DNA from: Negaprion brevirostris
Lineage: Eukaryota
Assembly: GCA_030324005.1 (NCBI GenBank)
Contig: JARDVH010000099.1
Coordinates: forward strand, 49,871,120-49,935,119
Length of the DNA stretch: 64,000 nt
Direction of reading: 5' to 3'
Positions within the stretch are counted from its first letter, which is position 1. Every line of letters begins with the position of its first letter. Made by a program: the position numbers and the translations under genes. The notes under the pieces were generated by a model. It had not been told where the DNA came from and did not search any database. It saw nothing but the letters and a program-made list of their open reading frames with translations. This document shows, piece after piece, positions 3,211 to 63,630 of this stretch.

Positions 3211-3309
3211 GAGTTCTGGCACCATTTTGGCTAAGCTGGAGATCCTTTCTGTCGTTGCAAAATATTTGACTCTTGGAGTTCAGCAAGTAAATTGCAGAGG
3301 TGCTGGCCA

Positions 3310-4610
3310 TAATCTTCAAATCCTAGTAGATTAGGAAATTGCAAATGCTACACCCTGGTTCACAGAAGGTACAACCATAAAGTAGACAGCTACAGCCAGT
3401 TAGTTTAACCTCCAGTGGGAAAGTTTATACAAAAAGTAATCTCAGCAAAAAGAACAGTCACTTGGACAAGGGTGGATTAAGGAAACACAGAATGGATTTG
3501 TTAAAGGCTACTCATGCTTAACTAACTTGACTGATTTTTTTTTTTACATATACAACAGGGAATTGAAGATTTTGCTTCTGATGCAATGTATATGGACTTG
3601 AAATAGGTGTTTGCCATGAAGTGTCACATCCTTGCCAGCAAAGTCAAAGCCCATAGAATAAAAAAGGACAGTGATGGCATGAATATAAAATCGGTTAAAG
3701 CACAGTGACATACAGTTATTTTTTGGAACTGGAGGAATGTATGCAATGGTGAGGGAAGTACAAAATTGCTGCTTTTCTGATCTATTTTAACGACCTAATT
3801 GTGGGTGTGAGGATGACACTAGACTTGGAAGTATTGTAAACTGAGGGGACAGTGATATACTTCAGGAGAACGTAGGATAGTGGAATGGGTGGACTCTTGG
3901 CAGGTGATATATAATGCAAAGAAGTGTGAAATGATAATTTTGGTAGGGAGAATGAGGAAAGGCAACATAAATGAAAGGATAGAATTCTCAAGGGGATAAA
4001 GGAACAGAGACATCTGGTTGCAAACCCACAAATCATTGAAAGTGACAAAGTGGGTTGAGAAAGTGGTTAACAACAGGATATGGGATCCTTGGCTTTGTAA
4101 ATAGGGTTTGGAGTTCAAAACCAGGGAACTCTGAGGGGTTTTGATAAAACATTGGTTTGGCAACAAGTGGAATATTATGTCCAACTCTGGACAACAGGTT
4201 TTAGAAAGGTTTTTATGAAAATATTTCCAGCAATTAGGAACTGTTACGTGGATAGATTGGAGAGCCTGGGGTTATTCTCCTTTGAGAGGAGGTTTGATAA
4301 GAGGTGTTCGTGATGTCAATGGGAACAATTTCCCTCCTAAAGACGAGTCAAGAATGAGAGGATGGAGATCTGAAGTGATTATTGAAATAACCCATTTTTA
4401 TACAGCAAATGATTGCAATCTGGAATGCACTGCCTGAGATTTTGATGGAGTCTGATTCAGTCATGCTCTTTGGAAGCGATTTGAATAAACACATGATGAG
4501 ACAATTTGTAGGGTTACAAGGAAAGGACAGGGGAGTGGCGTAGCTAAATTGCTCTTGCAGACAGTCAGCAGATACTAGACAGACCAATGGCAGTAAATAT
4601 TCCATGAATC
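3310..4610 (+). mobile_element. CR1 LINE, 5'-truncated, decayed RT plus 3' end
   Basis: Frameshifted CR1 ORF2 motifs: xxFLIYFNDL (~3770-3797), EYYVQLW (~4170), LGLFSFE (~4265), WNALPE (~4420), then a CR1 3' UTR. Confidence 0.85.
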
Positions 4611-6889: not shown

Positions 6890-7160
6890 GGGCAGCACAG
6901 TGGCTAGCATTGCTGTAAAAGGAACCCTGGCTTGGGTCACTGTGGAGTCTGCACATTCTCCCTGTGTCTGTGTTGGTTTCCTCTGGGTGCTTCAGTTTCC
7001 TCCCACAGTCTGAAAGACATGGTTAAGTGCATTGGCCATGCTAAATTCTCTCTCAATGTATCCAAACAGGTGCCAAAGTGTGACGACGAGGGAGATTTTC
7101 ACAGTAACTTCATTGCAGTGTTAATGTGAGCCTACTTGTAATACTAATAAATAAACTTTG
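6890..7160 (+). mobile_element. HE1-like tRNA/V-SINE with tail type B
   Basis: Head ggcagcacagtggctagc. V-domain tgtggagtctgcacattctccctgtgtctg...tttcctcccacagtc. Tail cacagtaacttcattgcagtgttaatgt...aataaataaacttt. Confidence 0.9.
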
Positions 7161-9053: not shown

Positions 9054-11814
9054 AATAGTCAGAATTCTGAATTCTTTTTGGAAAATATAATCCTGAGATG
9101 GTTAGAAAGACTAGAGTTTTCTCCATTTTTGTGCTCAGTTATACCTGTAATCTGGGTGTAAACCTTTCCTGTGTGTGAATTATATCTTAACTATAACACA
9201 GCCAAGTCTCCTATGTCTATCTGTCAGCCTATTATCCCAATAGGTTGCCATCCCCAACCCTTAAATATGAGTATTGCCCAAATGCACATGTTTTGGGTTG
9301 AGTGAAATCTCTCAGTAGACACATGGGAAGCAATTTTTCTGCTTCTAATTTTTGCAAATGCAATAAACATCTTTCCTTTTGAAAATATTGAGCAGAACCC
9401 AAAATGCCCTATTTTCTGCTTGTTTTAAAAACTATATATTTTTATGGTGTAAGAATGTCACATAAAATTAAAGCTTCCCTGATTGCATGTTCTTATGCAT
9501 ACTGTGACCTGAATGAACAATGTTTTACATGAGTTAAAATCTAAATTTTTAAGATGTCTTTAGTCTAGTTTGATATAAATTCTTACAGATTTTATGCCTA
9601 TTTCCATTTGGGGATATTCTAATGAGACTGGGAAGATTCTTGAATGCAACATTGGGTGCATTTTTGGGTTTAACTTCCAGATTGCATCTAAGGAGAAAAT
9701 TAGGTATCACAGTCACTAAACCTTCAGATTCAGCAACATTGAATGCATTGACAGTTGATGCTGGCATGAACAACTGCTGCCAGCAGAAAATAGAATAAAG
9801 TTCCACTTAAAATTAAAACTGTGTATATTTTAAAAAGTGATTACAGGGCTGTAATCTAATCTAGGGATTCAGATGCCTGTTATAAACTACTCAGGTTTTG
9901 TTCTCGCAGTTTATGATGCCATGTCAAGCCTTCGATCAAATTACTGCTTTGTAATCATTGCCAGGTATCCATTATTATCCATAAAAAGAAGTGACTCTTA
10001 TAGAGTTGTCTGGTTTGTGTAATTTATTCATGCAATATTCTTCAATTTTAAAAAGATGTTAGAAAGGATTTTTGTTTTGAAACAAGGGAAGAGCAAGAAA
10101 AGCTAGGTTTTGGATATTGCCATTGTTGGCAGGCACAGAAGGACTCAATGGAAATACAGTTTACACTTAATTTTCCATGGTCAGCATAGTACAGGCATGG
10201 ATGCAGCTTGTATACTAATGATTGAAGTAAGGAATTATGTAAGTAAAATTTAAAGGATTATGTCCATGAAAGGACAGGAAGAAAAGTTCTTAAAAACTTT
10301 TGAGAAGCTTGTAAAAGGCATTAAAATCCTTCAACAGCCTTTATCAAGACAGGAGACTAAGAAGAATAAGCAAATGTGAAAGAAAATACAACCTGAGCAC
10401 CTGACCCTTTAGTGTCCGCTTTTAAAGTGTTTCAGTAAATGATTGCAAGAAGGGCTGCCCACTGTGTTACTCCATGGCATTGTTTCCATTTCAACACGCC
10501 TACTTATATTTAGCCCTGTGCTAATGGAAAGCATAGGTGTCCAAGTAGTGGATGATACAATCCTGCAGCTGCCCTTCTTCCAACCCATAAGTTGCCAGGT
10601 AGGTATATTGAGATCTACAGAAAGGTGGGCATCGTGGTGGATGTGGCAAGTCGGGCTTTATAGGCTCCTGGCATACCTCCTTCTATGCAGTGCTGCTGAA
10701 AGTATGACATGCTATGATTCAGGTGTGTTCAACGTTGCAATTTGTGCACTTATCACATAGCTCAATGTTATCACTATTCCTGCTGCCCGGTTTCTTTTGG
10801 AAAGAGGAACCTCCACCTGGACTTAACATCTACCAAAGTGAGATATTTTCACTATATCTACAGGCACAAGTACCCTGGAGCATGCACAGATCTCCTCTCT
10901 TTGCAGATTTTCCTCTTCCAAATGCATCAGATAGGAATTCCCATTGCCAGTAATGATGCTGATGAGAGGAGTTTAGTTATAATGCCTAAAATGAATGGGA
11001 CCATTAATAGTTCCATGATTTCCAGTATATTTAATGCTGCAAAGCAAACCCAGATTGCATTTTAGATGCATGTTCTTTGCACCTGGCAACCTGCAACATC
11101 AGAATGGAGGTAAATGCTGTGCATCCACAAAATCCAAGGTAGTAATTGGCCGGTTTAATATTTCCACTGGCTGGTGTACTGCCTGTCAGAAATTGTGCGA
11201 CTACAAGATTGACATGTTTGAGAGACTGGGACTGTAACCCACCCAATTTCTACTGCAACAATTGCACTTGCAAGTTCAGTCTGTAAATTCTATTTATTCA
11301 AACTCTTCCCTCCCATGCAATATCAGCCTATTGTAATTTGAACAACTGAAAAATATTTTGTTTCCACTAAGCTACAAGGTAGGTAGTTCCAAAGATTTAC
11401 TTCTATGAACTAGTTCCTCTTGATATATATTTATAAAAATTTAAATTTATTTAAGAGGAAAATGAAGTTCAGTGTTTAACTCCCACTTCCTTATTCTATC
11501 TGAAAGAAGTAAGTAACAAATGTATCTTATCAGCCATATGATCATTTTGGATCTTTAACTCTGTGCATCAGTCATTTTAGAACTTTGTCACGTATGTGTC
11601 TTAGAGCTGTTTCATTCACTGCGATGGTAATAATCATGCATATTGTATTCCACCACACAAAGGTGGGCAGTTACATTTGATTCCAACACCTATTCAATGT
11701 GCTGCTCACCACTCACACCCCTTCCCACCCCTTACCCAACCACACTAAAGGCAATATAGAGAGCCAGTCTGGAGCTCGGCACTTGCGTGTAAAAGGTGAG
11801 GCTAAAACCTTCTT

Positions 11815-12145
11815 ACCTACAGCCAGAAGTACCAAGTGGCTGATGCACCTTGGCTTCTTCATTAGGTCCCCACCATCACAGGAGTAAATCTCCAGCCATG
11901 CAGCAACACCACATGTAAGTTCCCTTCTCAAGACACTCGCCCTCCTGACTTGGAAATGTTGCTGTTCCTTCACTGGGTCAAAATCCTAGAACTTGCTCCC
12001 CAATAGCACTGTGGGTATACCTACACCACAGGGACTGCAGTGGTTCAAGAAGACAGCTTACCACAACCTTCTGAAGGGTGATTAGGGATGGCCAGTAGAT
12101 GATGAACTAGCCAGCAGTGCCTCACCACATATTTTTTAAAAAAAG
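11815..12145 (+). mobile_element. 3' end of the tRNA-headed CR1-group LINE family
   Basis: ctgacttggaa...tgggtcaaaatcctagaac...cagtggttcaagaag...tagggatggcc...ccagcagtgcc followed by an A-run; homologous to 14100-14355. Confidence 0.75.
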
Positions 12146-12910: not shown

Positions 12911-12949
12911 ATTTATGTCAGGAGCTATGTCACAATATCAGGAAGAACA

Positions 12950-14355
12950 AAACGGCTGAATTTCAGAGGTGATGACAGTGTGACTGCGCTTGACATCGAA
13001 GCAGCAATTGACTAAATGTAGCAAAATCGAAATCTGAGAATCAGCTCTCCATTGGCTGGAGCCATACTTCACATATAGGAGGATGGTTGTGGAAACCAAT
13101 TATCTCAGTCCCAGAATCTCGCTGCAGGAGTTCCTCATGGCAATGTTCTAGTAGCTTTATCAATAACGATCCCTCAAGAACTGAAAATACTTTTTGATAG
13201 TTATGCAGTTTTCAGCTCCGTTCATATTGCCTCAGATAATGAAAGCAGTCTGTGCCTGCATGCCGCAAGTAAAGCTTGGACTAGTGAGTGTCCAGTAGCG
13301 TTCACATCACAAGTGCCAGGCACTGACCATCTCCATCAAGGAAAAATCTTCATACCTCCCTGGATATTCAATGGACAGGCCTCTTATAATCAAAATCCTG
13401 GGAATTGCCAATTTATTCATTCGTAGGTTATGGGCATCGCTGGCTGGCCAGCATTTATTGCCCATCCTTTGAACAGAGTGGCTTGCTAGGTCATTATAGA
13501 GGGCAGTTGAGTCAACCATATTGCTGTGGCTCTGATGTCACATGTAGGCCAGACCAGGTAAGGACAGCAGATTTCCTTCGCTAAAGGATATAAGTGAATC
13601 AGATGGGATTTTCTGATAGTCGACAATGGTTTCACGGTCAATTCCAGATAGTTTTTACTAAATTCACGTTCCACAACCTGCCGTGGTGGGATTCAAACCC
13701 AGGTCTCCAGAACATTAGTTCAGTTTCTGGATTAATAGTCTAGTGATAATGCCACAAGGCCATCGCCTCCCCCTAATCCTTAACCAGATAGCCAGAGTGG
13801 TGACACAAACAGGCCAGAAAGTGGGTATTTTATGGCAAATGACTCATTTNNNNNNNNNNATTAGTCCATAAAGCCTTTCCACCATCTATAAGCCACAAGC
13901 CAAGAAAGCGATGGAATACTCTCCACTTACTAGAAACTCAACACAGCCCAAGATAAAGCAGCCCGCTTGATTGGCACTTCAACCAACATGCAAAATGTCT
14001 ATTCCCTCCTAAACTGCCCATTGTAAATGCAGAGTGTACCATCTACAAAATGACAATACCTCCAAACCTGCAGTTTCCACTACCCAGGAAGCTCAAGGAC
14101 AGCAGGTGTGTGGGAATAATAGAATGTGCAAGTCACTCTCCAGGCCACATACCATGCTGACTTGGAACCATATTGATGGTCTTTCATTTCTTTTGGATCA
14201 AAACAGTGAAACTCCCTCCCCAACAGCACTGAGCATCCCGTCATGTAACAAACTGTAGTGGTTCAAGAAGCGAGCTCTTTGACGCAGTTAGGAATGGACA
14301 TTAAATGCTTGTTTTGCCAGCAATGCATACATCTAAGAATGAATAACAAAAAAAA
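12950..14355 (+). mobile_element. tRNA-headed CR1-group LINE family: decayed RT and 3' end, interrupted by a SINE
   Basis: gtgactgcgcttgacatcgaagcagca (VTALDIEAA) and gcaggagttcctcatggc (AGVPHG). Tail taaatgcttgttttgccagcaatgc...gaatgaataacaaaaaaa. Confidence 0.8.
13411..13773 (-). mobile_element. tRNA(Ser-like)-headed SINE carrying this LINE family's 3' tail
   Basis: Reverse complement gives A box tggccttgtgg, a long-variable-arm hairpin ccagaaac...gttctgg, B box ggtttgaatccc, and tail gggcaataaatgctggccagccagcgatgccc...gaatgaataaa. Homologous to 62500-62830. Confidence 0.9.
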
Positions 14356-15779
14356 ATTCTCCTTAAATGAAGGAATCTTTGTACGCAAAGGAAATTCGAG
14401 TGCATGCAAGGAGTTAAATGTCATAGAAGTCAAGATCCTGGCATCATCCAGGTTTCAGTCAGGTGGATTTGAAGTTGAACAAGGAAGGCAGTTAAATATT
14501 CAAATCTGTAACTGAGTGCTGTTTTAACCAAGCCTCCTGGCTTTAATATTCAGCTCATTTATTTACAAGTTGTCAGCAACTTGCCAGGAACAACCATGCA
14601 GATGTAAAATGGGACGTACTACTTTTGGTGAAACTCAGCTGGGAAGCCTTCGAACAGTGAAAATCTGAAGAGCTGCAGCCATGTCCAGGTGAAAAATGGT
14701 TGCTCATGCTTACCNNNNNNNNNNGAGTACTTTCACAGCTTCATAGGTGATTGCCAATTTCTTGGAAGACCTTTTTGGTTGTCTTGCACTTTACTCAATT
14801 TCAGCTGTACTATCCTGCTGCTAATCTGCATCATCATTTATTTGGCTCTACCTTGCATCTCTTATGTCAGTAGCAGCACCAGCTGTCTTTGCCTCAGCTA
14901 CATGTCTTTCCACAGGGCAGAGGGGATGGAAATAGAGAACAGGCTCCTATGAGGCAAGGCCCCAACATAGGATCTACCAGCAAAGGATCAACTGTATCAA
15001 AGTGTCTGAACCTCAGTGTCTCAGGCAGTTCAGGCTTCCACAGCATATCATTGATATTTACACCTCCTGGAATAAGACCATCTTTCCAGTGGGCCTGGTT
15101 GAGTGCCCATCAAGGTGCCTGTTACTTGCTGCCATCTGTATAAGAGCATTCACTGCATTCCTCCATATCTCTTAGCCGAACTCCAGCTAAGAGACCCAGG
15201 GAGCAGCCTTCCCAAATTTGATCTCCATTCCTGCCTTTGCTGCAGGTGAGCCATTCTAGCTCTGGCTGTGGTCCCTTTAATTATGAATTCTTGCTCTCTC
15301 AGATCTGGCTAATGCCCCAGCTCTGGTAAAGAGCCAAGGCAAAGCCCATTGTTGATTCTGGCGCATTTCTGATCTGCCGGTTTTCCGGTGCTGGCAGCAA
15401 TGGTTGAAAAATCAGGCCACTTTGTGCCTGGTGGAGCAGAGGAGTGCAAATGGCCCAGTATGATGTGAATGTTTTTAGAACCATTCACAACTCCATTTGC
15501 TAATTCAGATATTGGACCATGGAGTTCTTCAAATAGAAAAGACACTCTAGCCTTTTCTCCACCTTGTGTCTTGGGTGCACTTTATTTCAGACCAAATGCA
15601 GCTTTATAATTGAATGAGTGAACTGTCGCTTGCAATGGGTTATGCTGGATTGCTACCGTCCATAAATGAAATATGTGGGAAATCAGAAATATAAATGACT
15701 TATTTATTCTTGCCCATATGTTTGCTTGTCATTAAACAGGAGATGTTTGGTCAGTCTTCTGTTTGAAAAGCCTTTAAAG

Positions 15780-16410: not shown

Positions 16411-16824
16411 TGAGATGCTTAGTGGCCCTGCATTGACAGTAATTTACATTGTGGTGCTTGTGGCCTTAAGGAACAACTACTTCCAAATGTTATGAAACAA
16501 CAGCCTCCCTGACGTCCATTGGCAACGTTTCAACTGTGTGCCACTTTGCCATGTATTACTGTAGCAATGCAGCTCTATCACCAGGTACCAGAGAAAAATA
16601 GTAGTGAATTAATCTCATTTAGCTTTCAAAACCATCTTGTACATCATGATCTTCTCCATATTATTTTGACATCTTTTAATATTAAGTACTTCCCTAATTG
16701 GCGAAGCAGCATTGATGTCTGGTTGCAGAGGGTAAAAAAGACATGTACATGTGACCAACCCTACTACAATCACAGGGGCCAGCAATCTCTGGAGCTGTAT
16801 TCGTTCTTGGAATGGTTTTAAGAA

Positions 16825-16905
16825 AGTTTATGTATTATTCACAAGTAGGCTTACATTAACACTGTAATGAAGTTACTGTGAAAATCCCCTCGATGCCACA
16901 TTTCA
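16825..16905 (-). mobile_element. HE1-like SINE type-B tail, cut by a gap
   Basis: cacaagtaggcttacattaacactgtaatgaagttactgtgaaaatcccc is the reverse complement of tail B. Confidence 0.85.
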
Positions 16906-24237: not shown

Positions 24238-25272
24238 ACCCATGTTGCCATTTGCACTTGTTGCAGAGTAGTTTGTTCAGAGCTGACCACTTGTTTTTAC
24301 TGGGAAGGGGTTAAAGTGCGGATTGACTCCAGCTAGATTCTAATCCTAATTGCAGGTTAGTGGTTTTAAATTGGTGTATCTCATTCACTTTCATGGGCTC
24401 TGCCAGCTTAAGACAGCTGAGCACTGAGCATAATCGAGCTCCCGGACATCCAGTATTATTTAAAGTGGCAACACAAAGCTTTAATCAGGAAACCATACAA
24501 TCAGCAGCAAATTTAATGTCCCTTGTATTTCTGACCAAAGCGTATAAAAGTTGTGCAGTGTTTCAAAATGTAAAGATTACTTCAAGATACTTTTGAAATA
24601 TTTTCCTTACAGTTATCACCACTGCTGTTTTTTGTAGACTTTATGCAATATTTTGAACTTGGTACCCACATACGTCATGGAAATTATATCCTACCACCTT
24701 TCAAAGGAACAAAAACCTACTTAATCGTTCACATCCTAGTAGTTAGTTCAGTTTTGAGACAATTTGCAGTCTACTTGTGTTTTCTATGTACTCTCTCTTC
24801 ACATTTCATTGTGGATGTATACCAGTAAATGAGAAGTGAATGCACTGTGGAGAAACCAGTCGAGGGATATTGTGGCTTTGCTGTGGGCAATATTATAGGC
24901 ACTATATTACTGATGAACTTTCTCTCTGGTGCATACTTAACTCTTTATTTGCATCATCCTGAATTGCTGTGCACAGAATAATGTGAATTGTTGCTATTGT
25001 AATCCAGTAAAGAGAAATGGTTTTGCTTCTTTCAAAGAAGTGTGCAGGATTGCCTCAATTCATGTGCAGCTGTCAATTGGTTAGCATATGTTTAAGCCAG
25101 TCTTTGCTTATTGGTAATAAAAAAGCAAAAATGCTGGGAAAACTTAGCAGGTCAGGCAGCATTTTTGGAGAGAAACATTAATGTTTCAGGTAGAATGACC
25201 TTTTCATCAGAGCTGAAGAATGATAGAAATTTAAGAGTTGCCATTGCATCGTAAAATCTTTTGTTATTTAAT

Positions 25273-25830
25273 CACCGCTGCCCTCAGCGCCAGGGATCGG
25301 GGTTCGATTCCCGGTTTGGATCACTGTCTATGCAGAAGTCTGCACGTTCTTCCTGTGTCTGCATGGGTTTCCTCTGGGTGCTCCAGTTTCATAGAACATA
25401 GAACACTACAGCACAAACAGGCCCTTCGGCCCACGAGTTGTACCGATCACATCAACACCTACCANNNNNNNNNNNNNNNNNNNNNNNNNNNNNNNNNNNN
25501 NNNNNNNNNNNNNNNNNNNNNNNNNNNNNNNNNNNNNNNNNNNNNNNNNNNNNNNNNNNNNNNNGAAGTCTTGCATGGGGGACCTTATCAAACGCCTTGC
25601 TGAAGTCCATGTACACTACGTCCACGGCACTTCCTTCGTCAGTCTTTTGGACTGTGGAAGTTTCCTTCCACAGTCCAAAAGATGTGCTGCTTAGGTGCAT
25701 TGGCCATGCTAAATTCTACCCTCAGTGTACCCAAACAGGTGCCGGAGTGTGGCGACTGGGAGATTTTCACAGTAACTTCATTGGAGAGTGTCAGTGTAAG
25801 CCTACTTGTAATACTAATGAATAAACTTAA
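25273..25830 (+). mobile_element. HE1-like SINE (tail B) split by a CR1 insertion
   Basis: B box ggttcgattccc. V-domain interrupted at ctccagtttc and resumed at agtttccttccacagtcc. Tail B ends aataaactt. Confidence 0.9.
25391..25642 (-). mobile_element. Young 5'-truncated CR1 (mostly in a gap)
   Basis: Tail atagaacatagaacactacagc. RT motif DEGSAVDVVYMDFSKAFDKVPH on the - strand. 6-bp TSD agtttc at 25385-25390 and 25659-25664. Confidence 0.9.
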
Positions 25831-27954: not shown

Positions 27955-28255
27955 CTTTTTATGTTCATTCAAGGGATGTGGGTATCATTGGCTAGGCCAG
28001 CATTTATTGCCCATCCCTATATGCTCTTGAAGTTGGTGGTGAGCTGTCTTCAAGAACCTCAGCAGTCCCAGAGCTCTAGGTATACCCACAGTGCTGTCAT
28101 AGAATTCCAGGACCTTAACCCAGTAACACTGAAGGAATGGTAATATATTTTCAAGTCAGGATGGTGTGTGGCTTGGAAGAGAATTTGCAGATGGTAGTAT
28201 TCCCAGGTACTGCTTCAGTATTTGAGGAGTTGCAAATGGTGCTGAACAATGCGTA
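27955..28255 (-). mobile_element. 3' end of the tRNA-headed CR1-group LINE family
   Basis: ttcattcaagggatgtgggtatcattggctaggccagcatttattgccc is the reverse complement of this family's tail. Confidence 0.8.
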
Positions 28256-28424
28256 AAGTTACCTGTTACTAGGTTCTCGGGAATTCAGCTACCTCGCCAA
28301 CTGCTCCCTCCTTTCTCAGGGTTTGCCTTCAATGCCTTCTGACACTCTGCAAACATTATCTCTGGCTGATCATCAAATTAAATACTATGATGCCACCTGC
28401 CACCTACCACCTCCTCCCCCCCCC

Positions 28425-31859: not shown

Positions 31860-33000
31860 CAAGCTTCCCAATCCTTAAAGACCTACCTTTGATCCCTCTG
31901 TACTCACCAACTGCTTTCCAACCTCCCCCTTCTTTGATCTCTCAAACCCTTGAATGTACTCCATGTCAATCTCTCCTGCAACTTTGTCTGCATCCCTCCA
32001 GTCAGCTTCCTGCCATTCCCATAGCATTATCAACACTCATAACTGAATTCGTATCTTCAGTGGTGTGGCAACGGTGCATTATCCCTCCTTTCCCTCTGTG
32101 ACAGCTGCAATCTTCAATGCAGTTACATCCTTCTACAATTTCTTTTTCATAGGGTGATCCCAACAGGTTGGCCAACATGCTTACTTTTGTTTGTATTTGT
32201 TTTTGGGAAGTGGACCCTCTGTCTGAGGTCAGCTTTCTGATTACCCTTGCTGATCTTTCAACTCCCTCTACTGCCTCAATGCTACCTGATGCCTGGTGAC
32301 CATTCTTCAATGAGCCTTGATTCCTATGGCTGAGCCACGGAAGATCAAAGCCACCACCATTAGGCACGGTGGCACAGTGGTTAACACTGCTGCCTCACAG
32401 CACCAGGGACCCGGGTTTGATTCCTGGCTTGGGCCACTCTGTGTGGAATCTGCACGTTCTCCCTGTGTCTGTGTGGGTTTCCTCCCACAGCCCCAAAGAC
32501 ATGCTGGTTGGATGCATTGGCCATGCTAAATTCTCCCTCCTGTGTACCCGAACAGGCACTGGAGAGTGGCGAGTAGGGGATTTCATTGTGGTGTTAATGT
32601 AAGCCTACTTTTGACACAAATAAATGTTTCAAATAAACATTTTAAATATTCAGCCCCACCTTGAACTCCATTATTCTCCATTCTATTCCAGGCCCAACTC
32701 CATTCCCTTCCCAAACAGTCTGAAACAGAGAGCTGACATGCTGTTTGACCCTGAATTTAGTTTTCCACACTTACATCCTCTCAATTAGAAAAGCTCCCTG
32801 GTTGCAGCTGTCTGTTGGGTACTGAGGCCCTCCTTCTTGCCTTCGGTCACCTCCAGATTTGCTCACTTCAGTGCTCTCCTGGCCAGCTTGCCATCCTCCA
32901 AAATCTGTAGACTTCAACTCAGCCATAAACTGCTGCTCCATATCGTATCATGACTTCTCCCAACACTTCAAATTCTTAAATTCTTACCCTTGATCACCCC
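31860..33000 (+). mobile_element. Highly decayed L2 LINE ORF2 relic (SINE inserted)
   Basis: FDPSVLTN..SNLP-like segment at ~31890, FDPEFSF at ~32745, FGHLQIC / VTSRFAHFSALLASLP-like segment at ~32845-32895. Confidence 0.6.
32363..32625 (+). mobile_element. HE1-like SINE (tail B)
   Basis: A box tggcacagtgg, B box ggtttgattcc, V-domain, tail gtgttaatgtaagcctacttttgacacaaataaa. Confidence 0.9.
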
Positions 33001-33227
33001 TCTTAATAAAGGGAACGTCTATTTATCCTGGTCTCTCTACAAAGCGCTTGAAGTCCTTATCTCTATTAGAAGTGCTTCATATGTGCAAGATTTTGGAGTT
33101 GATTCTTCAAAGAACCATTTCTTTGTGGTTTAAAAACACCCACCCTGATTCATCGAATAATGAAAACTTGAGTCTTCTAATGTATTATCGCTGTCACACC
33201 GCACATTCTATTTCCTGTACAATAATA

Positions 33228-33455
33228 GGTTAGTTTCCTGGCTTGGGTCACTGTGTGGGTGGAGTTTGCACGTTCTCCCAGTGTCTGCATGGGTTTCCTC
33301 CCACAGTCCAAAAGACGTGCCAATTAGGTACCATGCTAAATTGTCCCTCAGTGTACCCAAACAGCTGCTGGAATGTGGTGACCAGGGGACTTTCACAGGA
33401 ACTTTATTGCAGTGTTAATGTAAGCCTATTTGTGACACTAATAAATAAACTTTAA
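33228..33455 (+). mobile_element. HE1-like SINE (tail B), 5'-truncated
   Basis: V-domain and tail ...taagcctatttgtgacactaataaataaacttta. Confidence 0.9.
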
Positions 33456-43152: not shown

Positions 43153-43424
43153 GGGGGACACAGTAGTCAGCACTGCTGCAACAGTGCTAGGGACCCAGGT
43201 TTAGTTCCCAGTTGGGTAACTGTGTGGAATTTGCATGTTCTCCCCATGTTCACGTGGGTTTCCTTCTCACTGTCCAAAGTTGTGCAGATTAGGTGGATTG
43301 CCCCTTAGTGTCAGGAGGATTAGCATGGGATTATGGGGATAGGGCCATGGGAGAGGGGGGATTGTGGTCAGTGCAGACTCGATGGGCCAAATGACCTCCT
43401 TCTGCACTGTAGGGATTCTGTGAT
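43153..43424 (+). mobile_element. HE1 SINE with CR1/HER1-type tail A
   Basis: tRNA head, V-domain, tail gatgggccaaatgacctccttctgcactgtagggattctgtgat. Confidence 0.9.
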
Positions 43425-43425
43425 A

Positions 43426-43637
43426 ACTGTATCTGTATGGAGTTTGTACGTTCTGCCCTTGTCTGCATGGGTTTCCTCCGGGTGCTGCGGTTTGCTCCCA
43501 CAGTCTGAAAAACGTGCTGGTTAGGTACATTGACCGTGCTAAATTCTCCCTCAGTGTACCTGAACAGGTGCCCGAGTGTGACAACTTGTGGATTTTCATA
43601 ATAACTTCATTGCAGTGTCAGTGTAATAAATAAATTT
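43426..43637 (+). mobile_element. HE1-like SINE (tail B), headless, abutting the previous SINE
   Basis: Starts at the V-domain; ends ttcattgcagtgtcagtgtaataaataaa. Confidence 0.9.
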
Positions 43638-46344: not shown

Positions 46345-46730
46345 AGTAGTAATGCCGATTTCAAGTGCTGCTTTCAAGAATACAGATCATTCCATTTCAT
46401 GATCGTTAAAAGGGACCTCTGAAAGCAGATTTTCTGGATAACTTTGTCAATATTTCACCACTACTTGAGCAATATTTATTCTGGAATTTCATTGAGGATA
46501 TTACCTGAAAATAGCACATGCTGTGCTCTTTCATCTTACTGGATGCTTTGGAGGAAGGGACTGCTTGTTCTTGGATACCTTGCTTACGGGTCTCCTGTGT
46601 TCTGGACAGGGAATGGGAGGAGGGTAAAAGGCCAGGCAGAGTGGCACCAGAATCTGCAATGATAGGAAGGCAAAATCATGTCCTTTCCCCCACTGTGAGT
46701 ACAGCACATCCCTCCTTCTCTGAACCATTA

Positions 46731-48208
46731 CATTGTTACTGCATTCTTGTTTTTTACTGACATTAGACAGGAGCTGCACATTTCCCAACTGGATTCCCAA
46801 TGCAGAAATGTGCAGCATTGCTACTCCAGGAGCCCTTTCCCTATAGTGCAGCCACGTCCACTTTTTATGGCACTATCTGCCATTAACGGCTAAGTTTAAA
46901 GATCACAGCTACTGTGACAGGAGAAAAGCTAAGTGTGTAAGGAAGTGAGTAGTGGGTAGAATGGGTTGGGGCAGGGAGTGAGGGGGTGGGGACAGTAATA
47001 GGGTGGGGAGTAGTTGAGGGNNNNNNNNNNNNNNNNNNNNNNNNNNNNNNNNNNNNNNNNNNNNNNNNNNNNNNNNNNNNNNNNNNNNNNNNNNNNNNNN
47101 NNNNNNNNNNNNNNNNNNNNGTGGGGGGGGGGGGACAGTAATAGGGTGGGGTGTAGTTGAGGGGCAAGGGTAGGGTTCTCGGGGTGGGGGAGGATAGTCA
47201 AGAGCATGGGTCAGGTAATCGAGAGGTGTGTGTTGAGGAGTCCAGTGGAGCCTCAGGGAATCATTACCCTAGTTATCCAGGATTTAGAAGTGGTTTGAAT
47301 GCCTCTAAGGCCTCTGGTGCTACACTGGAGAACTAGTGCAGAACCCTAACCCTAATGCACCCTCTCTGTTGGTCCCGGGATGCTGCATGTGCCAGCCGGA
47401 AAGCTCCGCACATGGTAGCTTAATCAGCAGTTGAGTGAAAAAGCCACGGATGTCTTCAGGAGCCCTAGGAAAGTTTAAATTATGGTGATTGGCAATTAGG
47501 ATAAAAGTTGCACATTAAATCCAGACTTTCAAACAAGTTAAATGCAGCACTGACTTAGTGCCTATTTTCACCCATTAAGCAAAGTAGCTTTCCATGTTTA
47601 CACCCACTCATTTCTAATAGACACCCACTCATTTCTAATAAAGTAATCAGAGATTTTTTACAGAGGGGGTAGTCCTTTTAGCACCTGATGTTCTAGTTCT
47701 TTCGAGCTGAATGTCAGGTTAGATAAATTGATAACTTGTTCCATATGACTAGCAGAATGAATTATCCTTTCTGCGAATGCAGGTGCATTCACCCAGGATC
47801 ATCGCCTTCGGTAGGGTTTATTCCAGCTCATTTTAAACTGAACCCTTTACACACTATTCTTCGACTATCCGACCCATGCTCTTGACTATTCGCCCCCACC
47901 TCAAGAACCCTACCCTTGCCCCTCAACTACTCCCCACCCTATTACTGTCCTCCCCTCTCACTACCTGCCCCAACCCATTCTATCCACTACTCACTTCCTT
48001 ACACACTTAGCTTTTCTCCTGTCACAGTGGCTGTGATCTTTAAACTTAGCCGTTAATGGCAGATAGTGCCATAAGAAGTGGATGTGGCTGCACTATAGGG
48101 AAAGGGCTCCTGAAGTAGCAATGCTGCACATTACTGCATTAGGAGTCCAGTTGAGAAATGTGCAGCTCCTGCCTAATGTCAGTAAAACAAAAGAATGCAG
48201 TAACAACG
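46731..48208. repeat. Long inverted repeat / foldback element
   Basis: 46731-~47235 is the reverse complement of ~47845-48208. About 16 differences counted by eye over the outer ~290 nt. Spacer ~600 bp. tta on both flanks. Confidence 0.9.
47600..47640. repeat. Tandem duplication, 21-bp unit x2
   Basis: acacccactcatttctaata(g) occurs twice. Confidence 0.9.
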
Positions 48209-49259
48209 TTATGATTATTGCCACTCCAGGAAAGATTCAGCCCAAAGTATTAGGAGGTTGACTGTTCTGCTGTACTACTTGGGATTAAGATTTATGAATG
48301 CCGGCTCACTAGTTAGCATTAAGAGATTGACCCTTATTGGGCCAGAATCTATTTCACTAAGAAAAGCATTGTTAGCTTCAAATATGCAATCTTTCAAGAC
48401 ATTTCCATGACCTTTAGTACTATATTTGCCTGCTAAGAACAGGCAGTTCTGCAAAGGTGTCTTTGTGATGCTTGGAGTCTATGATCAAGCCTCCTTGAGT
48501 GGCGCTGCTTGAGGAGCGATCCAAAAGATAAGCAGAGAATTCCAAATGGAGTAAATAATTTACTCTCCATGTACAATAACCCTCTGTCCTCGAAGTAAGA
48601 TTGTTTGCAATTGTCATGTTTCCAGCTGACCACCCTTCAACTGCCAGGACCTTGACAGAGTTTGGGAACAGGTGCATGCCATTCAATCCTTCAAACCTCT
48701 TCCTTATCAGGTCCCCTTTTCATTTCAAACAGTGCAATTAAATCACCTCCCAACCCTCAAAGCAAGGGAATATGAACTAAATTTATACGATAAATTTAAG
48801 AAAGTTAATTTATCCCTTAATTCTCACCCAAATGCCAATTGTGTCATAAAATGATATCCAATTCTATGTGTCATTANNNNNNNNNNNNNNNNNNNNNNNN
48901 NNNNNNNNNNNNNNNNNNNNNNNNNNNNNNNNNNNNNNNNNNNNNNNNNNNNNNNNNNNNNNNNNNNNNNNNNNNNNNNNNNNNNNNNNNNNNNNNNNNN
49001 NNNNNNNNNNNNNNNNNNNNNNNNNNNNNNNNNNNNNNNNNNNNNNNNNNNNNNNNNNNNNNNNNNNNNNNNNNNNNNNNNNNNNNNNNNNNNNNNNGTC
49101 CGGGATGGGTGGGACTGGAAAATTTCAAAGTTTGTACCTCTCAAACTCTCTTATTAAATAATTGGGTGACATTTACGGTTTTTCAATATATAGGCACAGT
49201 TCTTAAATCTGGAGAGCTTTGGAATTTTTCTGACTCATTTAGAATGTTCTCACCTATTT

Positions 49260-49495
49260 GGGCCATGTGGTTGGCACTGCTGCCTTGCAGCACCAGGGAC
49301 CCAGGTCAATTACAACCTTGGGTAATTATGTCTGTGTGGAGTTTCCACATTCTCCTCATGGATTTTCCTCCACACTCCAAAGATGTGCAGATTAGGTGGA
49401 TTGGCCACATTAACTTGCCCCTTAGTGTCCCAAGGGGCACTAAATTAGATGGATTAGCCAAGGTAAATGTGTGGGGTTAGAGGGANNNNNNNNNN

Positions 49496-49561
<66 letters not shown>

Positions 49562-52077: not shown

Positions 52078-52356
52078 CGGTACGGTGGCACAGCTCAGGT
52101 TCGATTCCCGGTTTCGGCCACTGTCTGTGTGGAGTCTGCATGTTCTCCCTATGTCTGTGTAGGTTTCTCACGGTACTCTGGTTTCCTCCCATTGTCTGAA
52201 AGATGTGCTGGTTGGGTGCATTAGCCATGCTAAATTCTCCCCCACTGTACTCAAACCGTCGCCGAAGTGTGACAACTAGTGGATTTTCACAGTAAATTTT
52301 TATTGCAGTGTTAAGCAATGTAAGCCTACTTGTGACATCAATAAATAAACTTTAAA
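52078..52356 (+). mobile_element. HE1-like SINE (tail B)
   Basis: cggtacggtggcacag, B box ggttcgattccc, V-domain, tail ...aataaataaacttta. Confidence 0.9.
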
Positions 52357-55081: not shown

Positions 55082-55177
55082 TGCCGGCGTTGCTGGTGAC
55101 GTGGCAGTGCCGGCGTTGCTGGTGACGTGGCAGTGCCGGCGTTGCTGGTGACGTGGCAGTGCCGGCGTTGCTGGTGA
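55082..55177. repeat. Perfect 26-bp minisatellite x3.7
   Basis: Unit tgccggcgttgctggtgacgtggcag, identical copies with no spacers. Confidence 0.95.
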
Positions 55178-58642: not shown

Positions 58643-58972
58643 AGTCATACATACAACTCCTGCAGTGCAGAAGAGGCTGTTCAGCCCGTCGAGTCTGCAC
58701 CGACTCTCTGACTGGTTATCTTGCCCAGCTCTCTTCCCCACCCTAATCCATCTAACCCACACATCTTGGGAAATTAAGGAACAATTTAACATGGCCAGCC
58801 CACCTAATCCCCATGTCTTTGGACTGTGGGAGGAAACTGGAGCACCCAGAAGAAACCCACGCAGACATGGGAAGAACATGCAAGCTCCACACGGACAGTC
58901 ACCCAAGACTGGAATTGAACCCGGGTCTCTGGATCTATGAAGCAGCAGTGCTAACCACTGTGCCGTCGTGCC
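58643..58972 (-). mobile_element. HE1 SINE with CR1-type tail A
   Basis: Reverse complement gives ggcacgacggcacagtggttagcac...ggttcaattcc, V-domain, tail gacgggctgaacagcctcttctgcactgc. Confidence 0.9.
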
Positions 58973-59984
58973 ACTCTGGTTGCTGAATAACTGTGCTGAT
59001 ATCACTGAGAGTCCTTTCCCCTTGTACCACCTGTTATCCTTTGCAATAGACTCCATGAGATCAAAATATTCTATGGTTGCCTCACGTGATGCAAGGTCTC
59101 AAAACTGGCAACCACAGGACTGAGTCCATGCCAGATTTAGGGTTGGGTAGTTGGGGCCATGAGTGGTAGGATCACAGGTCCTTTGGATCATGGAAACAGA
59201 CCAGTACTCAAACAGTGAAGCAGACAAATAATCCAATAACAAACATACCACGCCAATATAGTGCCTAGCTAAATGCTCCAATGCGTTTTTTTTCCAATTA
59301 AAATTGACGCATGGCACACTGCAAAAATATCCGTATTCACACAACTCTGGCTTCTGGACAGCCAGATTTGAGACACTGAATGTATAACTTTTTCTAACTT
59401 AGAAATGCTGAATGTTGACCATCACTGATTTGGCATCAGTAGCATTTTTCTTCCTTAAATTTGGGAGCATATACGTCATTAATTTTTCTTTAAGTTTAAA
59501 CTTTTGGCACTTTTTAAGTTACTTGACATTGCTAATGATATGGATTGCATTGAGTTGACTAGAAAGATAGGGAATGCAACCAACTTGATCAGCCCCCTAT
59601 TCTTTCTTTGTATTTTTTTTAGTCGTGTTGTACCCACTNNNNNNNNNNAAGTGGACTGTGTCAGTTCCTGATGCTACCAATATCTGTGTCTTCCATCAAC
59701 TTTCCCTTTCACTTAATATATTGTCATCAACCTTTCCTAACTGCAACATGCCTAACAATAATTCTTATAAGTCCTAAATAATGTGGACATACTACTCAGT
59801 TTTCTCATCATGATGAATTTTTGTAACTTCTCTTTCATGCTTCTTCTGGGACCCCCTCCTGGACAAAAATCTTGTCAAACTTGTTTTAGGGTTTTGCTTC
59901 AAATTATTTGGCGTTCTAATAAGTATTTCAAAAATGGAAATCAGCATTTTCATAAAGCAAAAGAGATCCATGAACAAGCTCTAT

Positions 59985-60145
59985 AACCCCTGAAATTTAG
60001 AAGAATGAGAGGTGATCTTATTGAAATTTGTAAAATTCTCAAGGGGCTAGATAGGCTGGATGCTGGTAGAATGTTTCTCCTGCCTGGGGAGTCAGGACCT
60101 GGAATCACACACTCAGAATAAAAAGGTGGCTATTTAGGGTTGAGT
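59985..60145 (+). mobile_element. CR1 ORF2 C-terminal fragment
   Basis: Reads LKFRRMRGDLIEICKILKGLDRLDAGRMF. Confidence 0.85.
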
Positions 60146-61173
60146 TAAAGTACTGTAGTGATATTTTACTGGGCCAGTAATCCAGAGACTCAGAGTAATG
60201 CTCTGGGTAGTCCAAAGGTAATGTTCCAATCCAAGTTTGAATTTAATCGATAAAAATCTGGAATTAAAAGTCTAATGATGACCATGTCATTGTCAATTGA
60301 TGTAAAAATCCATTTGATTTGCCAATGCCTTTTAGAGAACAAAATCTACTATCCTTACTTCTTCTGGCCTAATTGTCACTCTAGATCAATTGCAATGTGG
60401 TTGACTCCTAATTACCCTCTGAAATTGCATAACAAGTCAGTTGATTATATCCAACCAATAAGGTATTGTAACATTGACCCAGGCACCAGAAAGGACAGTG
60501 GCAAACTCAGTCCAATCAACCCTGAAAAACCCTGCTTACTAACATCTGGAGGCTAGTGCTAAAGCCTGACATAGTCATTCTCATGGAATACCTTATGGAC
60601 AGTGTCCCATACAACACCATTACCATCTCTGGGTATGTCCTGTCCCACCAGCAGGACAGACCCAGTAGAGTTGGCAGCAGAGTTAGGAGCGAGTTGCCTT
60701 GGGAGTCTTCAACAATACCGACGTCTCGTGGCATCAGGTAAAACATGGGCAAGGAAACTTCCTGCTCATTACCATGTACTGGCCTACCTACCCCTTAGCT
60801 GATGAATCAGTACCCCTCCATGGTTGAACACTAGTTGGAGGAAGCACTGAGGGTGGCAAGGGCCAGAGTGCGGTAGTACCACCAGACACTAAGCTGGTCA
60901 AGTCCTGAAGAACATAACTACTACACTGGGTCTGTCAGGTGGTGCAGGAACCAACAAGAGAAAAAAAAATACTTGACTTCATCCTCACCAACCTGCCTGC
61001 CACTGGCGCATCTGTCCATGACAGTATCAGTAGGAATGACCGCTGCACACTCTCTGTGGAGACAAAGTCCCACCTTCACAGAGCGGATGCCCTCCATTAT
61101 GTTGTGTGGCACCACCACCATGCTAAATGGAATAGACTTTGAACAAGTCCAGCAAATCAAGACTGGGCATCTA

Positions 61174-62059
61174 AGTTTTAAGTTTAAATTTATTTGTTCT
61201 CACTGGAATGATGGATATGGACTATGAGGGACATGGACAGAGTGGATAGTCAGAAGCTTTCTCCCAGACTGGAAGACTCAGTTACTAGGAGGCATAAGTT
61301 TAAGGTATGAGGGTAGATGCAAGGTGCAAGGTTTAAAGGAGATATACAAGGCAAGTTTTTTTACACAGAGGGTGGTAGGCACTGTGGAACTCGCTGCCAT
61401 GGGAGGTAGTGGAAGCAGAGACGATAGTGATTTTAAGGGGCATCTTGGCAAATATGTGACTAGGATGGGAATGGAGGGATATGGTCCCTGGGAGGATAGG
61501 AGGTTTTAATTCAGTCAGTGCAGGCTTGGNNNNNNNNNNNNNNNNNNNNNNNNNNNNNNNNNNNNNNNNNNNNNNNNNNNNNNNNNNNNNNNNNNNNNNN
61601 NNNNNNNNNNNNNNNNNNNNNNNNNNNNNTATGTGACTAGGATGGGAATGGAGGGATATGGTCCCTGGGAGGATAGGAGGTTTTAATTCAGTCAGTGCAG
61701 GCTTGGAGGTCCGAAGGGCCTGTTCCTGTGCTGTTAATTTCTTTGTTCTTTATTTATTCGTGTCACAAGTAGGCTTACATTAACACTGCAATGAGGTTAC
61801 TGTGAAATTCTCCTAGTCACCACAGCCCAGCACCTGTTTGGGTACACAGAGCGAATTTAGCATGGACAGTGCACCTAACCAGCACATCTTTTGGACTGAG
61901 AGAGGAAACCGGCACACCCAGTGGAAACCCAAGCAAACACAGGGATGGTGGACGTGGGGAGAACGTGCTGACTGTGCACAAACAGTGACCCAAGCTAGGA
62001 ATCGAACCTGGATTCCTGGCGCTATGAGGTAGCAATACTAACCACTGTCACCGTGCCGC
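61174..62059 (-). mobile_element. HE1-like SINE (tail B) with a CR1 inserted in its tail
   Basis: Reverse-complemented head gcggcacggtgacagtggttag at 62059. Tail pieces at 61174-61203 and 61750-61810. Confidence 0.85.
61205..61750 (+). mobile_element. CR1 3' end
   Basis: FFTQRVVG motif and tail gaagggcctgttcctgtgctg...tctttgttcttt. Confidence 0.85.
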
Positions 62060-62499
62060 TCTATGTGGAACTATGGACCATCAGCAGAATTGTACTCGAC
62101 CACAATCTGTAACCTCGTGACCTTGGATAGTCCCCAAATTATCATTATCAACAAGCCAGGGGATCAACCTTGGTTCAGTGAAGAATGCAGCAGGGCATCT
62201 AGGGACAACGCCGGACATACCTAAAAATCAGGTGACAATGTGATGAAGCTACAACCCTGCTGCTTGCGTGCCAACAGAAAACACATCAAGCAATAGACGG
62301 AGCTAAGCGATTTCCCCAACCAACAGATCAAATTTAAACTCTGCCATCCTACTGCATCCAGCAGGTAGTGGACAGTTCAACAACTCACTGGAGGAGGAGG
62401 AGGCTCCACAAATATCCCCATCCTCAATGATGCAGGAACCCAGCACATCATTTTCAGAGAAAAGGCTGCTACACATCAATGCAAGACATAAGGCTGTAA

Positions 62500-62830
62500 G
62501 GGGAGGTAGTGGTATAGTGGTATTGTCGCTGAATTAATAACCCAGAGACCCAGGGTAATACTGTAGGAACCCACATTTGAATCCCACCATGGCAGATGGT
62601 GAAATTTTATTTCAATAAATTTCTGGAATTAAATGTCAGATGTTGACTGTGAAACTATTGTCGATTGTTGCAAAAACCCATCAAACTCATTAATGGGAAG
62701 GAAATCTATCATCCTTACCTGGTCCGGCCTACACGTGACTCCAGACCCACATCAAATATGGTTGACTCTTAAATGGACAATAAATGCTGGCCCAGCCAGT
62801 GATGCCCATATCTCATGAATAAATTTTTTA
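62500..62830 (+). mobile_element. tRNA(Ser-like)-headed SINE carrying this LINE family's tail
   Basis: A box tggtatagtgg, B-box relic tttgaatccc, tail caataaatgctggcccagccagtgatgccc...gaataaa. Confidence 0.9.
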
Positions 62831-63544
62831 ATATCTTCAGCCAGAAGTACCAAACAGATGATCCATCTCAATTTTCCCAGTGTTAGAGATTCTAGTCTTC
62901 AGCCAATTCAATTCACTCCATGTCAAGAAATAGCTGAATACTTGGATCCTGCAGAAGCTAATATTTTGGCAATAGCACTGAAGACTTGTGCTCCAGAGTT
63001 TGCTGTGCCCATGGGCAACAACCCAGAAATGTGAAAATTGCCCAGATATGTCCTGTGCACAAAAAGCAGGACAAATCCAACCTGCCAATTACCACCCCAT
63101 CAGTCTACTCTCAAATCATCAGTAAAGTGATGGAGAGGATCATCAACAGTGCTAACAAACAGCACTTGCTTAGCAATAACCTGCACACCAACTTTCATGA
63201 GTTCTGCAAGGGCCACTCAGCTCCTGACTTCATTACAAACATGGTTCAAGCATGGACAAAAGAGCTGAACTCCAGAGCTGAGGTGAGAGTGACTGCCCTT
63301 GACATCAAGGCAGCATTTGCTATAGCACCAAAGAACCCCAGCAAAATTGGAATCAATGGGAATATGGCTGGTTGGAGCCATAGCCAGTACAAATACTGGC
63401 TATGGGACTATGGGAAGCCAATCATCTCAGTTCCAGCACATCATTGCAGGATTTTCAAGATAATGTCATAAGCCAAACCATCTTCAGCTTCATCAAATGG
63501 CCTTCCTTTTGTCATAAAATTGAAATGGGGATATTCACAGATGT

Positions 63545-63630
63545 GTGTCTTGAAGGAGGAAAAAGAGGCAGAAAAGTTTAGTGAGGGAGGGATTGAAAAG
63601 AAGGATGAGAATTTTAAAAATCAAGGTGTT
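63545..63630 (-). mobile_element. L2 3' fragment
   Basis: Reverse complement contains ttgatttttaaaattctcatc (FKILI) and ctccttcaagacac. Confidence 0.5.

Follow-up and report, generated by a model that had tools for sequence, protein, structure and literature searches.

How does a sequence of the kind that opens a short interspersed element (SINE) come to stand directly in front of the open reading frame (ORF) of a long interspersed element (LINE)? This question is raised by a locus that begins near position 60150 of a 64-kb stretch of Negaprion brevirostris DNA (contig JARDVH010000099.1; hereafter the window), which is repeat-rich eukaryotic DNA with a GC content of 39.5%. The initial annotation of the window had described the locus as a CR1-group LINE with a transfer RNA (tRNA)-like head, and two SINEs of the same window as internal-deletion derivatives of it. 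Our comparison showed that the junction between head and ORF, as judged from the sequences, is a property of the Zenon family of LINEs in elasmobranchs. The locus itself is probably an old, dead copy of a Zenon LINE of elasmobranchs, a CR1-group element of about 3.3 kb with a single ORF for an APE endonuclease and a reverse transcriptase (RT). Its parts are the following.

60150..60235, plus strand: decayed tRNA-like head of the Zenon copy, with an A-box remnant (60151-60161), an anticodon-like arm (60169-60185), a second hairpin (60189-60207), a short insertion and the remnant of a B box (60223-60232, a B-like box)
60236..60442, plus strand: body, or 5' untranslated region (5' UTR), common to both SINE copies and to the published elasmobranch Zenon consensus 5' ends (alignment and hidden Markov model (HMM))
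60443..60531, plus strand: LINE-specific leader from the SINE-shared part to the endonuclease, about 90 nt long, against some 30 nt more in the consensus rows
60532..61172, plus strand: APE endonuclease part of the one ORF, broken by frameshifts and stop codons (tblastn with P0053, P0131, P0037 and P0151)
61173..62062, no strand assigned: later insertions into the Zenon copy, namely a CR1-like 3' fragment, an N gap (61530-61629) and, on the minus strand, a SINE that belongs to a different, abundant family (61749-62062) (self-BLAST, sequence)
62063..62499, plus strand: APE-RT linker region of the Zenon ORF (tblastn with P0037 315-428 and P0131 290-415)
62830..63545, plus strand: RT region of the Zenon ORF, which ends near the RT catalytic motif, the 3' part being absent (phmmer, tblastn, tree)

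Other repeats and the N gap break the copy at 61173-62062, and one of the SINEs does so at 62500-62829. It stops at about 63545 without a 3' end, and it sits within an older CR1 fragment (59950-60145). The first 10 nt or so of its head are unrecognisable, and the T-arm region is rearranged.

We found that the 5' part of this copy was clearly related to both SINEs, as had been claimed, with scores above those of all shuffles. Positions 60158-60439 matched the SINE at 13411-13773(-) at 189 of 264 positions (local alignment, score 153; maximum of 300 shuffles, 41), and the 60150 head matched the SINE at 62500 at 223 of 323 positions (score 161; shuffle maximum, 46), the latter alignment overrunning into the non-homologous tail. 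An HMM built from the three heads matched exactly three loci in the window, and the next match had an E-value of 0.5. The blocks named in the initial annotation are indeed shared, but the shared stretch continues for about 30 nt past the last of them, to about 60442, the point where the SINE at 13.4 kb jumps to its tail. Within this stretch, 60250-60286 is a 37-nt exact match, found by eye, to the white-shark row CarCar_Zenon-1. The leader of about 90 nt that lies between the SINE-shared part and the endonuclease leaves no space for an ORF1, and 60472-60545 is identical to the stingray row HypSab_Zenon-1 at 57 of 74 positions (ungapped, hand count).

The 60150 copy lacks the SINE tail and runs through this leader into APE and then RT, as originally described. 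In tblastn with full-length relatives the matches were colinear: APE N-terminus at 60505-60678, APE C-part at 60918-61172, linker at 62096-62473 and RT at 62870-63411. Using the RT piece as a phmmer query, we obtained 531 proteins at E ≤ 0.001, the best of which were short fragments of 55-70% identity. Pfam was weak on the decayed coding pieces (RVT_1 in one of eight, E 0.03, below the cut-off). Two peculiarities of the locus were also seen. An imperfect tandem duplication of about 28 nt of Zenon ORF sequence (62447-62499) lies directly 5' of the SINE insertion, and identical 77-nt stretches (61453-61529 and 61630-61706) flank the 100-N gap, probably as an assembly overlap artefact.

Is this arrangement an accident of one locus? 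Stuart et al. (2026, PMC13343379) have published ten Zenon consensus rows in their Table S2, and we compared the first 400 nt of each by eye; statements on this and the other cited papers refer to the parts of them that were available. The elasmobranch rows (CarCar, HypSab, RhiTyp, ScyCan and SquAca-1/2/3) come from five species and comprise 2886-3314 characters. All seven open with the head and continue through the body into the leader. They start 5-10 nt before the A-box-like motif. An anticodon-like arm follows, then an extra arm, of which the stingray row lacks a part, then a B-box-like motif and that body; the HypSab and SquAca-3 rows visibly extend to the start of APE. None of the three other rows (two hagfish, one coelacanth) has the head; they start differently. 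Because all seven elasmobranch rows carry the head-to-leader junction, we regard the joining of head and ORF as family-wide, and the 60150 copy carries the same head-leader junction independently of the published rows. The junction is thus not unique to this locus, and the description of a single-ORF CR1-group LINE whose full-length form opens with a SINE-type head stands for these seven rows. The absence of ORF1, which had been presented as unusual, is not: Zenon and Rex1 universally lack ORF1 (PMC13343379), and we therefore rejected it as a novelty.

The same paper reports that Zenon ends in a poly-A tail, that elasmobranch Zenons were previously absent from repeat repositories, and that Zenon masks 0.7-6.8% of five elasmobranch genomes against 0.018% of Callorhinchus. 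The former figure probably includes SINE copies too. In the six legible cells, intact ORF2 copies per family were 0/2313, 1/1419, 3/612, 1/294, 0/396 and 0/59.

An RT phylogeny had been among the checks proposed. In our tree of 37 rows, the window RT, whose row fills 33% of the columns, grouped with P0005 and with proteins of Mobula and Scyliorhinus (support 100/99). It fell in a clade of 21 rows, apart from the best matches to the canonical CR1 pieces of the window. The tree included no named Zenon reference. Proteins of Mobula birostris and Scyliorhinus torazame contain pieces of the Zenon LINE. Two NCBI gene models of these species (P0154 and P0155, the latter named cystathionine beta-synthase-like) include segments derived from Zenon RT, through exonisation or as an annotation artefact.

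Some results weigh against a headed coding LINE. No junction-spanning protein was found in databases (the APE piece against longer proteins, none of nine candidates; a 100-aa junction frame, no candidate), and none of 43 distant LINE relatives from a scan of genome contigs, all of ≤40% identity and none elasmobranch-like, had a tRNA head in a tRNA scan of all 43. One blastn match to head or SINE occurred among these relatives (E 0.08), and Rfam showed no tRNA family in the seven of the 43 examined. The ESM Atlas yielded no usable match for the junction, and among 158 relative proteins none matched the head convincingly. A plasmid search gave no match, and the PDB matches were confined to RTs of L1, R2 and group II introns. 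The protein-search blanks are uninformative because the head is non-coding. The 43 loci (L001-L043) are animal-type non-LTR (long terminal repeat) RT loci in bacterial and archaeal metagenome-assembled genomes of GTDB, some on contigs of >1 Mb, and reflect host contamination of the bins.

We then turned to the short element and to the 3' ends that it resembles. The features concerned are listed here.

62500..62829, plus strand: head+tail SINE, short junction type, join at about 62773, within the ORF of the Zenon copy, with an A box at 62510-62520 and a B-like box at 62575-62584
13411..13773, minus strand: head+tail SINE, long junction type, join at about 13471, antisense inside another Zenon copy; the best preserved tRNA-like head
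12947..14360, plus strand: 5'-truncated Zenon copy (RT to 3' end), host of the 13.4-kb SINE
11810..12135, plus strand: Zenon 3' end fragment, which aligns with the 28-kb end at 153 of 199 positions
27955..28260, minus strand: 3' end piece of a Zenon copy, and the best template for the tail of the SINE (alignment, HMM)

The short element is made up solely of the 5' module joined to roughly the final 60 nt of the LINE (sizes about 363 and 330 nt). Its similarity to the LINE ends where the LINE leader starts and resumes about 10 nt, or three codons, upstream of the probable ORF stop, where the tail begins, with no foreign middle. The two tails matched the LINE 3' end at about 27960-28010(-) at 48 of 56 and 43 of 51 positions, and the match to the 14.3-kb end was 50 of 63. 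The tail had been equated with the LINE ends near 12100, 14300 and 27960. Pairwise alignment bore this out for the latter two but not for the 12.1-kb end (33 of 44, score 34, not above the shuffle maximum of 39), while an HMM of all three LINE ends matched both SINE tails (E 2.9e-9 and 2.3e-7). The 3' end of the short element folds as a hairpin, with a z-score of −2.96 in the 13.4-kb copy and of −0.73 and −1.01 in two other ends. The 14.3-kb and 28-kb Zenon ends finish in A-rich runs, the 12.1-kb end less clearly so.

Both short elements are non-coding, fall in the 100-700 nt range and were inserted as units, each breaking a LINE ORF. That both copies lie inside Zenon bodies, which make up about 5.7% of the window, has a chance of about 0.003 if independent (post hoc, n = 2); the placement may reflect an insertion bias or local clustering. 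Membership among SINEs with the UCON3 domain was considered and rejected: only a 9-nt motif is in common, in unrelated context, and five other motifs are absent from the hagfish supplements (PMC7245038). The chondrichthyan SINEs with an L2 partner (PMC5499810) are different elements.

How far is the head tRNA-like? In the window copies the evidence is consistent with a tRNA origin, though below threshold. In the Rfam alignment of the best preserved head, at 13.4 kb, the D, anticodon and T arms come in the right order, with an insert of 21 nt. The only strict B box in the 64 kb lies in this head, at 13699; both other heads have looser B boxes, as do four unrelated sites of the window. In the 60150 copy the anticodon-like stem pairs at 5/5 positions and the second hairpin at 7/7, and this hairpin is present in the minimum free energy fold. 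In the SINE copies, stem and hairpin pair at 3/5 and 5/7 in one and at 4/5 and 3/7 in the other, the last value being affected by imperfect alignment. An unbiased blastn search with the head matched only three phage records, all overlapping tRNA genes at the T arm (E 4).

Several results run counter to a tRNA origin. ARAGORN predicted no tRNA gene, and no copy scores as a tRNA; Rfam matched one head of three (13678-13761, 13.7 bits against a gathering cut-off of 29, E 2.1) and neither the 60150 nor the 62.5-kb head; and folding of the whole head was no better than that of shuffles (z −0.48, 0.66 and, for the 60150 head, 0.02). The more specific proposal of a tRNA-Ser-like head with a long variable arm survives in part. 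The long extra arm is real, being the 21-nt insert of the Rfam alignment, but AGT (Thr) stands in the anticodon-like loop of the window copy and of most published rows. Two dogfish rows have an extra arm that agrees with the anticodon arm at 16 of 19 positions (by eye) and looks like a second copy of it. We take the anticodon stem and T arm to resemble those of class II (Ser/Leu) tRNAs.

What, then, is the origin of the short element? We consider it rather probable, on the sequence comparisons above, that it arose by internal deletion from the headed LINE, probably more than once, either at reverse transcription or when short homologies recombined. In origin it would be a SIDE, in function a SINE. 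The 5' UTR of elasmobranch Zenon would consist of a tRNA-derived head (A and B boxes) and a body of about 200 nt. The head would have been gained once, on the elasmobranch branch, when a tRNA or SINE was fused to an ORF1-less Zenon, and the protein of the Zenon ORF would mobilise the short element through the common 3' hairpin and A-rich end.

Repeated deletion is favoured because the SINE heads track different LINE heads and because the junctions differ. By hand count over about 95 nt, the head of the 13.4-kb SINE is identical to the whale-shark row (RhiTyp) at 84 of 95 positions versus about 77 of 96 for CarCar, whereas the 62.5-kb head is nearer to CarCar (about 77 of 95) than to RhiTyp (about 70 of 96). 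The single junction that had been implied does not hold: the two copies join about 35 nt apart, the 62.5-kb copy lacking that much more. Repetition on the strength of two copies is suggestive, and exchange of heads would yield a similar pattern. At the breaks, a 3-nt overlap is visible by eye at the 62.5-kb join and no clear one at the 13.4-kb join; Wang et al. (2019, PMC6740152) have shown that butterfly Zenon repeatedly yields internal-deletion derivatives with microhomology at the break. The internal deletion originally proposed is therefore favoured by the junctions, the head types and the lack of a foreign middle, but this falls short of proof. On the opposite side of the balance, two SINE copies were examined and the short junction may be a later deletion in one of them, and no target-site duplication was seen at either SINE. 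The initial age test, with 57 private changes in the 60150 head against 27 and 32 in the SINE heads, pointed to an older 60150 head; after removal of the rearranged stretch, the counts of 41 against 25 and 28 were not significant (p 0.06 and 0.15).

The order of events could also be reversed: a tRNA-SINE with a Zenon tail would have supplied the LINE with a new 5' UTR in the form of its own head and body, today's SINE being the surviving donor and the heads having been swapped by template switching. Zenons outside elasmobranchs have no head, which hence was acquired from elsewhere (PMC6740152), Zenon-tailed SINEs occur in bivalves and butterflies (PMC11481361, PMC6685494), and module exchange is common (PMC5786205). 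We nevertheless find this order unlikely, since the two SINE copies have two junctions and are each nearer to a different LINE head type, and since the body is absent among hagfish SINE and UCON3 rows apart from the 9-nt motif mentioned above. The family is also almost absent from Callorhinchus, so that the chimaera shows no sign of an older, abundant SINE built on this body.

Two further explanations would make the head a neighbour of the LINE and not a part of it. A chimera formed a single time, or a SINE without a tail that lies next to a LINE by chance, would suit a region full of nested insertions in which only one such junction occurs, but the junction is the same in all seven consensus rows from five species; we rejected this explanation and give it next to no credence. 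Sequence-specific non-LTR elements exist, and a LINE that always enters one SINE site would add a SINE head to any consensus; SINE and LINE copies are physically nested in the window. However, the nesting is reversed, with the SINE inside the LINE in both cases, and the three other Zenon fragments all lack both an upstream head and a second, downstream tail (three significant loci with the head HMM, five with the tail HMM). Target-specific insertion was rejected on account of these fragments and is highly improbable.

The next question is how such a LINE would be transcribed and translated. Internal A and B boxes would set the start of RNA polymerase (Pol) III at nucleotide 1; for the short element this is very likely, and for the LINE the chance is close to even. 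Each full-length copy would then carry its own promoter. In its fullest form, which we put forward tentatively, Zenon would be an autonomous LINE of 3.3 kb that is made by Pol III from a captured tRNA promoter and whose uncapped RNA is translated without an in-frame AUG, in other words a self-mobilising SINE that makes SINEs by loss of its ORF.

The translation puzzle appears real from the rows. In four of the seven, by hand reading, no stop interrupts the APE frame across an Arg-rich leader that has no ATG in this frame, and another frame holds the last ATG; HypSab could be followed fully, and CarCar, ScyCan and RhiTyp assume no later indel. The CarCar row has 12 ATGs upstream. A two-codon ATG-to-stop unit in the APE frame is present in the rows of only three of five species and is not conserved. 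Translation might skip cap-dependent scanning and an in-frame AUG by re-initiation, by a frameshift from an overlapping upstream ORF, or from a near-cognate start. Precedents are the AUG-independent translation of ORF2 in L1 and the translation of uncapped R2 RNA.

The main rival is transcription by Pol II, from an internal Pol II promoter in the head region or with the tRNA-like fold as a processing signal that frees the LINE RNA from a read-through transcript, as HDV-like ribozymes do in R2 and RTE, the Pol III boxes serving the short element only. It is a serious candidate, though one to which we give somewhat less than an even chance. The division of labour in which Pol II makes LINEs and Pol III makes SINEs is textbook knowledge (PMC10886601), and six clades of LINEs are known to process their own 5' ends (PMC5786205). 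Both hairpins are still paired in the LINE-borne head, and the second keeps its pairing between the dogfish and galeomorph rows despite changes on both sides (by eye), which points to a role at the RNA level. Against Pol II stand the A- and B-box-like motifs, which the LINE rows of sharks and of one ray have preserved at a tRNA-like distance from nucleotide 1, and the many upstream ATGs, which are ill-suited to capped scanning. The visible 400 nt of the seven rows contain no run of four or more T (T4+), the signal at which Pol III would terminate; this too speaks against Pol II, although it is not significant, the rows being non-independent and about one run per 400 nt being expected by chance.

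Transcription of the LINE by Pol III faces objections of its own. The heavily decayed Zenon pieces of the window contain 12 sense-strand T4+ runs against 8.3 expected, so that no depletion was revealed, which suits transcription by Pol II. Kojima (PMC10886601) has argued that the processivity of Pol III sets a limit to element length and that Pol II transcribes non-LTR elements. Reading frames are moreover hard to trust across A-tracts because the consensus rows derive from mostly broken copies (0-3 intact ORF2 per family).

The window holds other repeats as well. A second abundant SINE family, presumably V-SINE/HE1, has about ten copies (6926-7159, 16823-16905, 25268-25828, 32363-32625, 33227-33455, 43159-43626, 49267-49457, 52096-52353, 58777-58977 and 61749-62062). 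An element of about 1.5 kb (46723-48216) with inverted arms of about 300 nt and 94% complementarity spans an N gap and resembles a miniature inverted-repeat transposable element or a fold-back DNA transposon. We also noted a perfect GC-rich 26-nt tandem repeat of 3.7 copies (55082-55177), a 65-nt poly-C run (49496-49560) and, where a CR1-like RT fragment borders a SINE, a near-palindrome of 40 nt (25643-25682).

The Zenon family, its lack of ORF1 and its tendency to form deletion derivatives were already known. The tRNA-like head on an ORF-bearing LINE and the SINE with both LINE ends appear undescribed. No description of a tRNA-headed Zenon or of the short SINE was found in the literature covered; Repbase, Dfam, SINEBase, subscription journals, Weber et al. 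(2020) and further supplements may hold one. In the standard view, LINEs are transcribed by Pol II, SINEs are transcribed by Pol III and are non-coding, and an RNA head is gained only after coding loss (PMC10886601, PMC5786205). A headed coding LINE that masks up to about 7% of shark genomes would offer a one-step route from LINE to SINE and a traceable origin for an entire SINE body, which is a long-standing open question. It would blur the usual border between protein-coding LINEs and SINEs, and it makes testable whether a Pol III-type promoter can drive a translated retrotransposon RNA. In practice, shark repeat annotations will mask and count the short SINE as Zenon LINE.

Among known systems, the elasmobranch Zenon LINEs of Stuart et al. 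(PMC13343379) are of the same family, with identical 5' layout, a single ORF, no ORF1 and an A-rich end. The main text of that paper contains the word "tRNA" 0 times, "promoter" 0 times and "SINE" once, and the supplement text "trna" 0 times; no tRNA-like head or derived SINE is noted there. ZenoSINE and the bivalve Zenon-tailed SINEs (PMC6685494, PMC11481361) likewise use a Zenon 3' end for mobilisation, the tail alone being reported as common to SINE and LINE. A SINE that shares both ends with its LINE, which had been taken as unusual, has a counterpart in Lepidoptera. There the Persaeus SIDE has both Zenon ends, a repeated internal-deletion origin and a poly-A end (PMC6740152). However, Persaeus shows no homology to tRNA, 5S or 7SL and no Pol III promoter, and it includes the ORF start and a variable unrelated middle. 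The shark element has a tRNA-like 5' end and no foreign middle; it is SIDE-like in origin but not of the Persaeus type.

Adoption of small-RNA Pol III promoters by a Pol II retroelement class has been described in TRIMp3 (Cassandra, Helenus and Ajax; PMC10886601), which differ in being of LTR type, short and non-coding. RTE-1_DAn and the elements related to it (PMC5786205) are autonomous LINEs with a tRNA-like sequence that matches SINE2 elements, as here; they belong to the RTE clade, and the one-sentence account of them mentions no SINE with both ends. Kojima (2018, PMC5786205) has described bipartite SINEs from RTE and Vingi (Bov-tA, AfroSINE, CoeSINE4/5) that likewise combine a tRNA head, part of a LINE 5' UTR and a LINE 3' end. 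In those SINEs the head was added to a non-autonomous derivative and the LINE is headless, whereas in shark Zenon the ORF-bearing LINE itself is headed.

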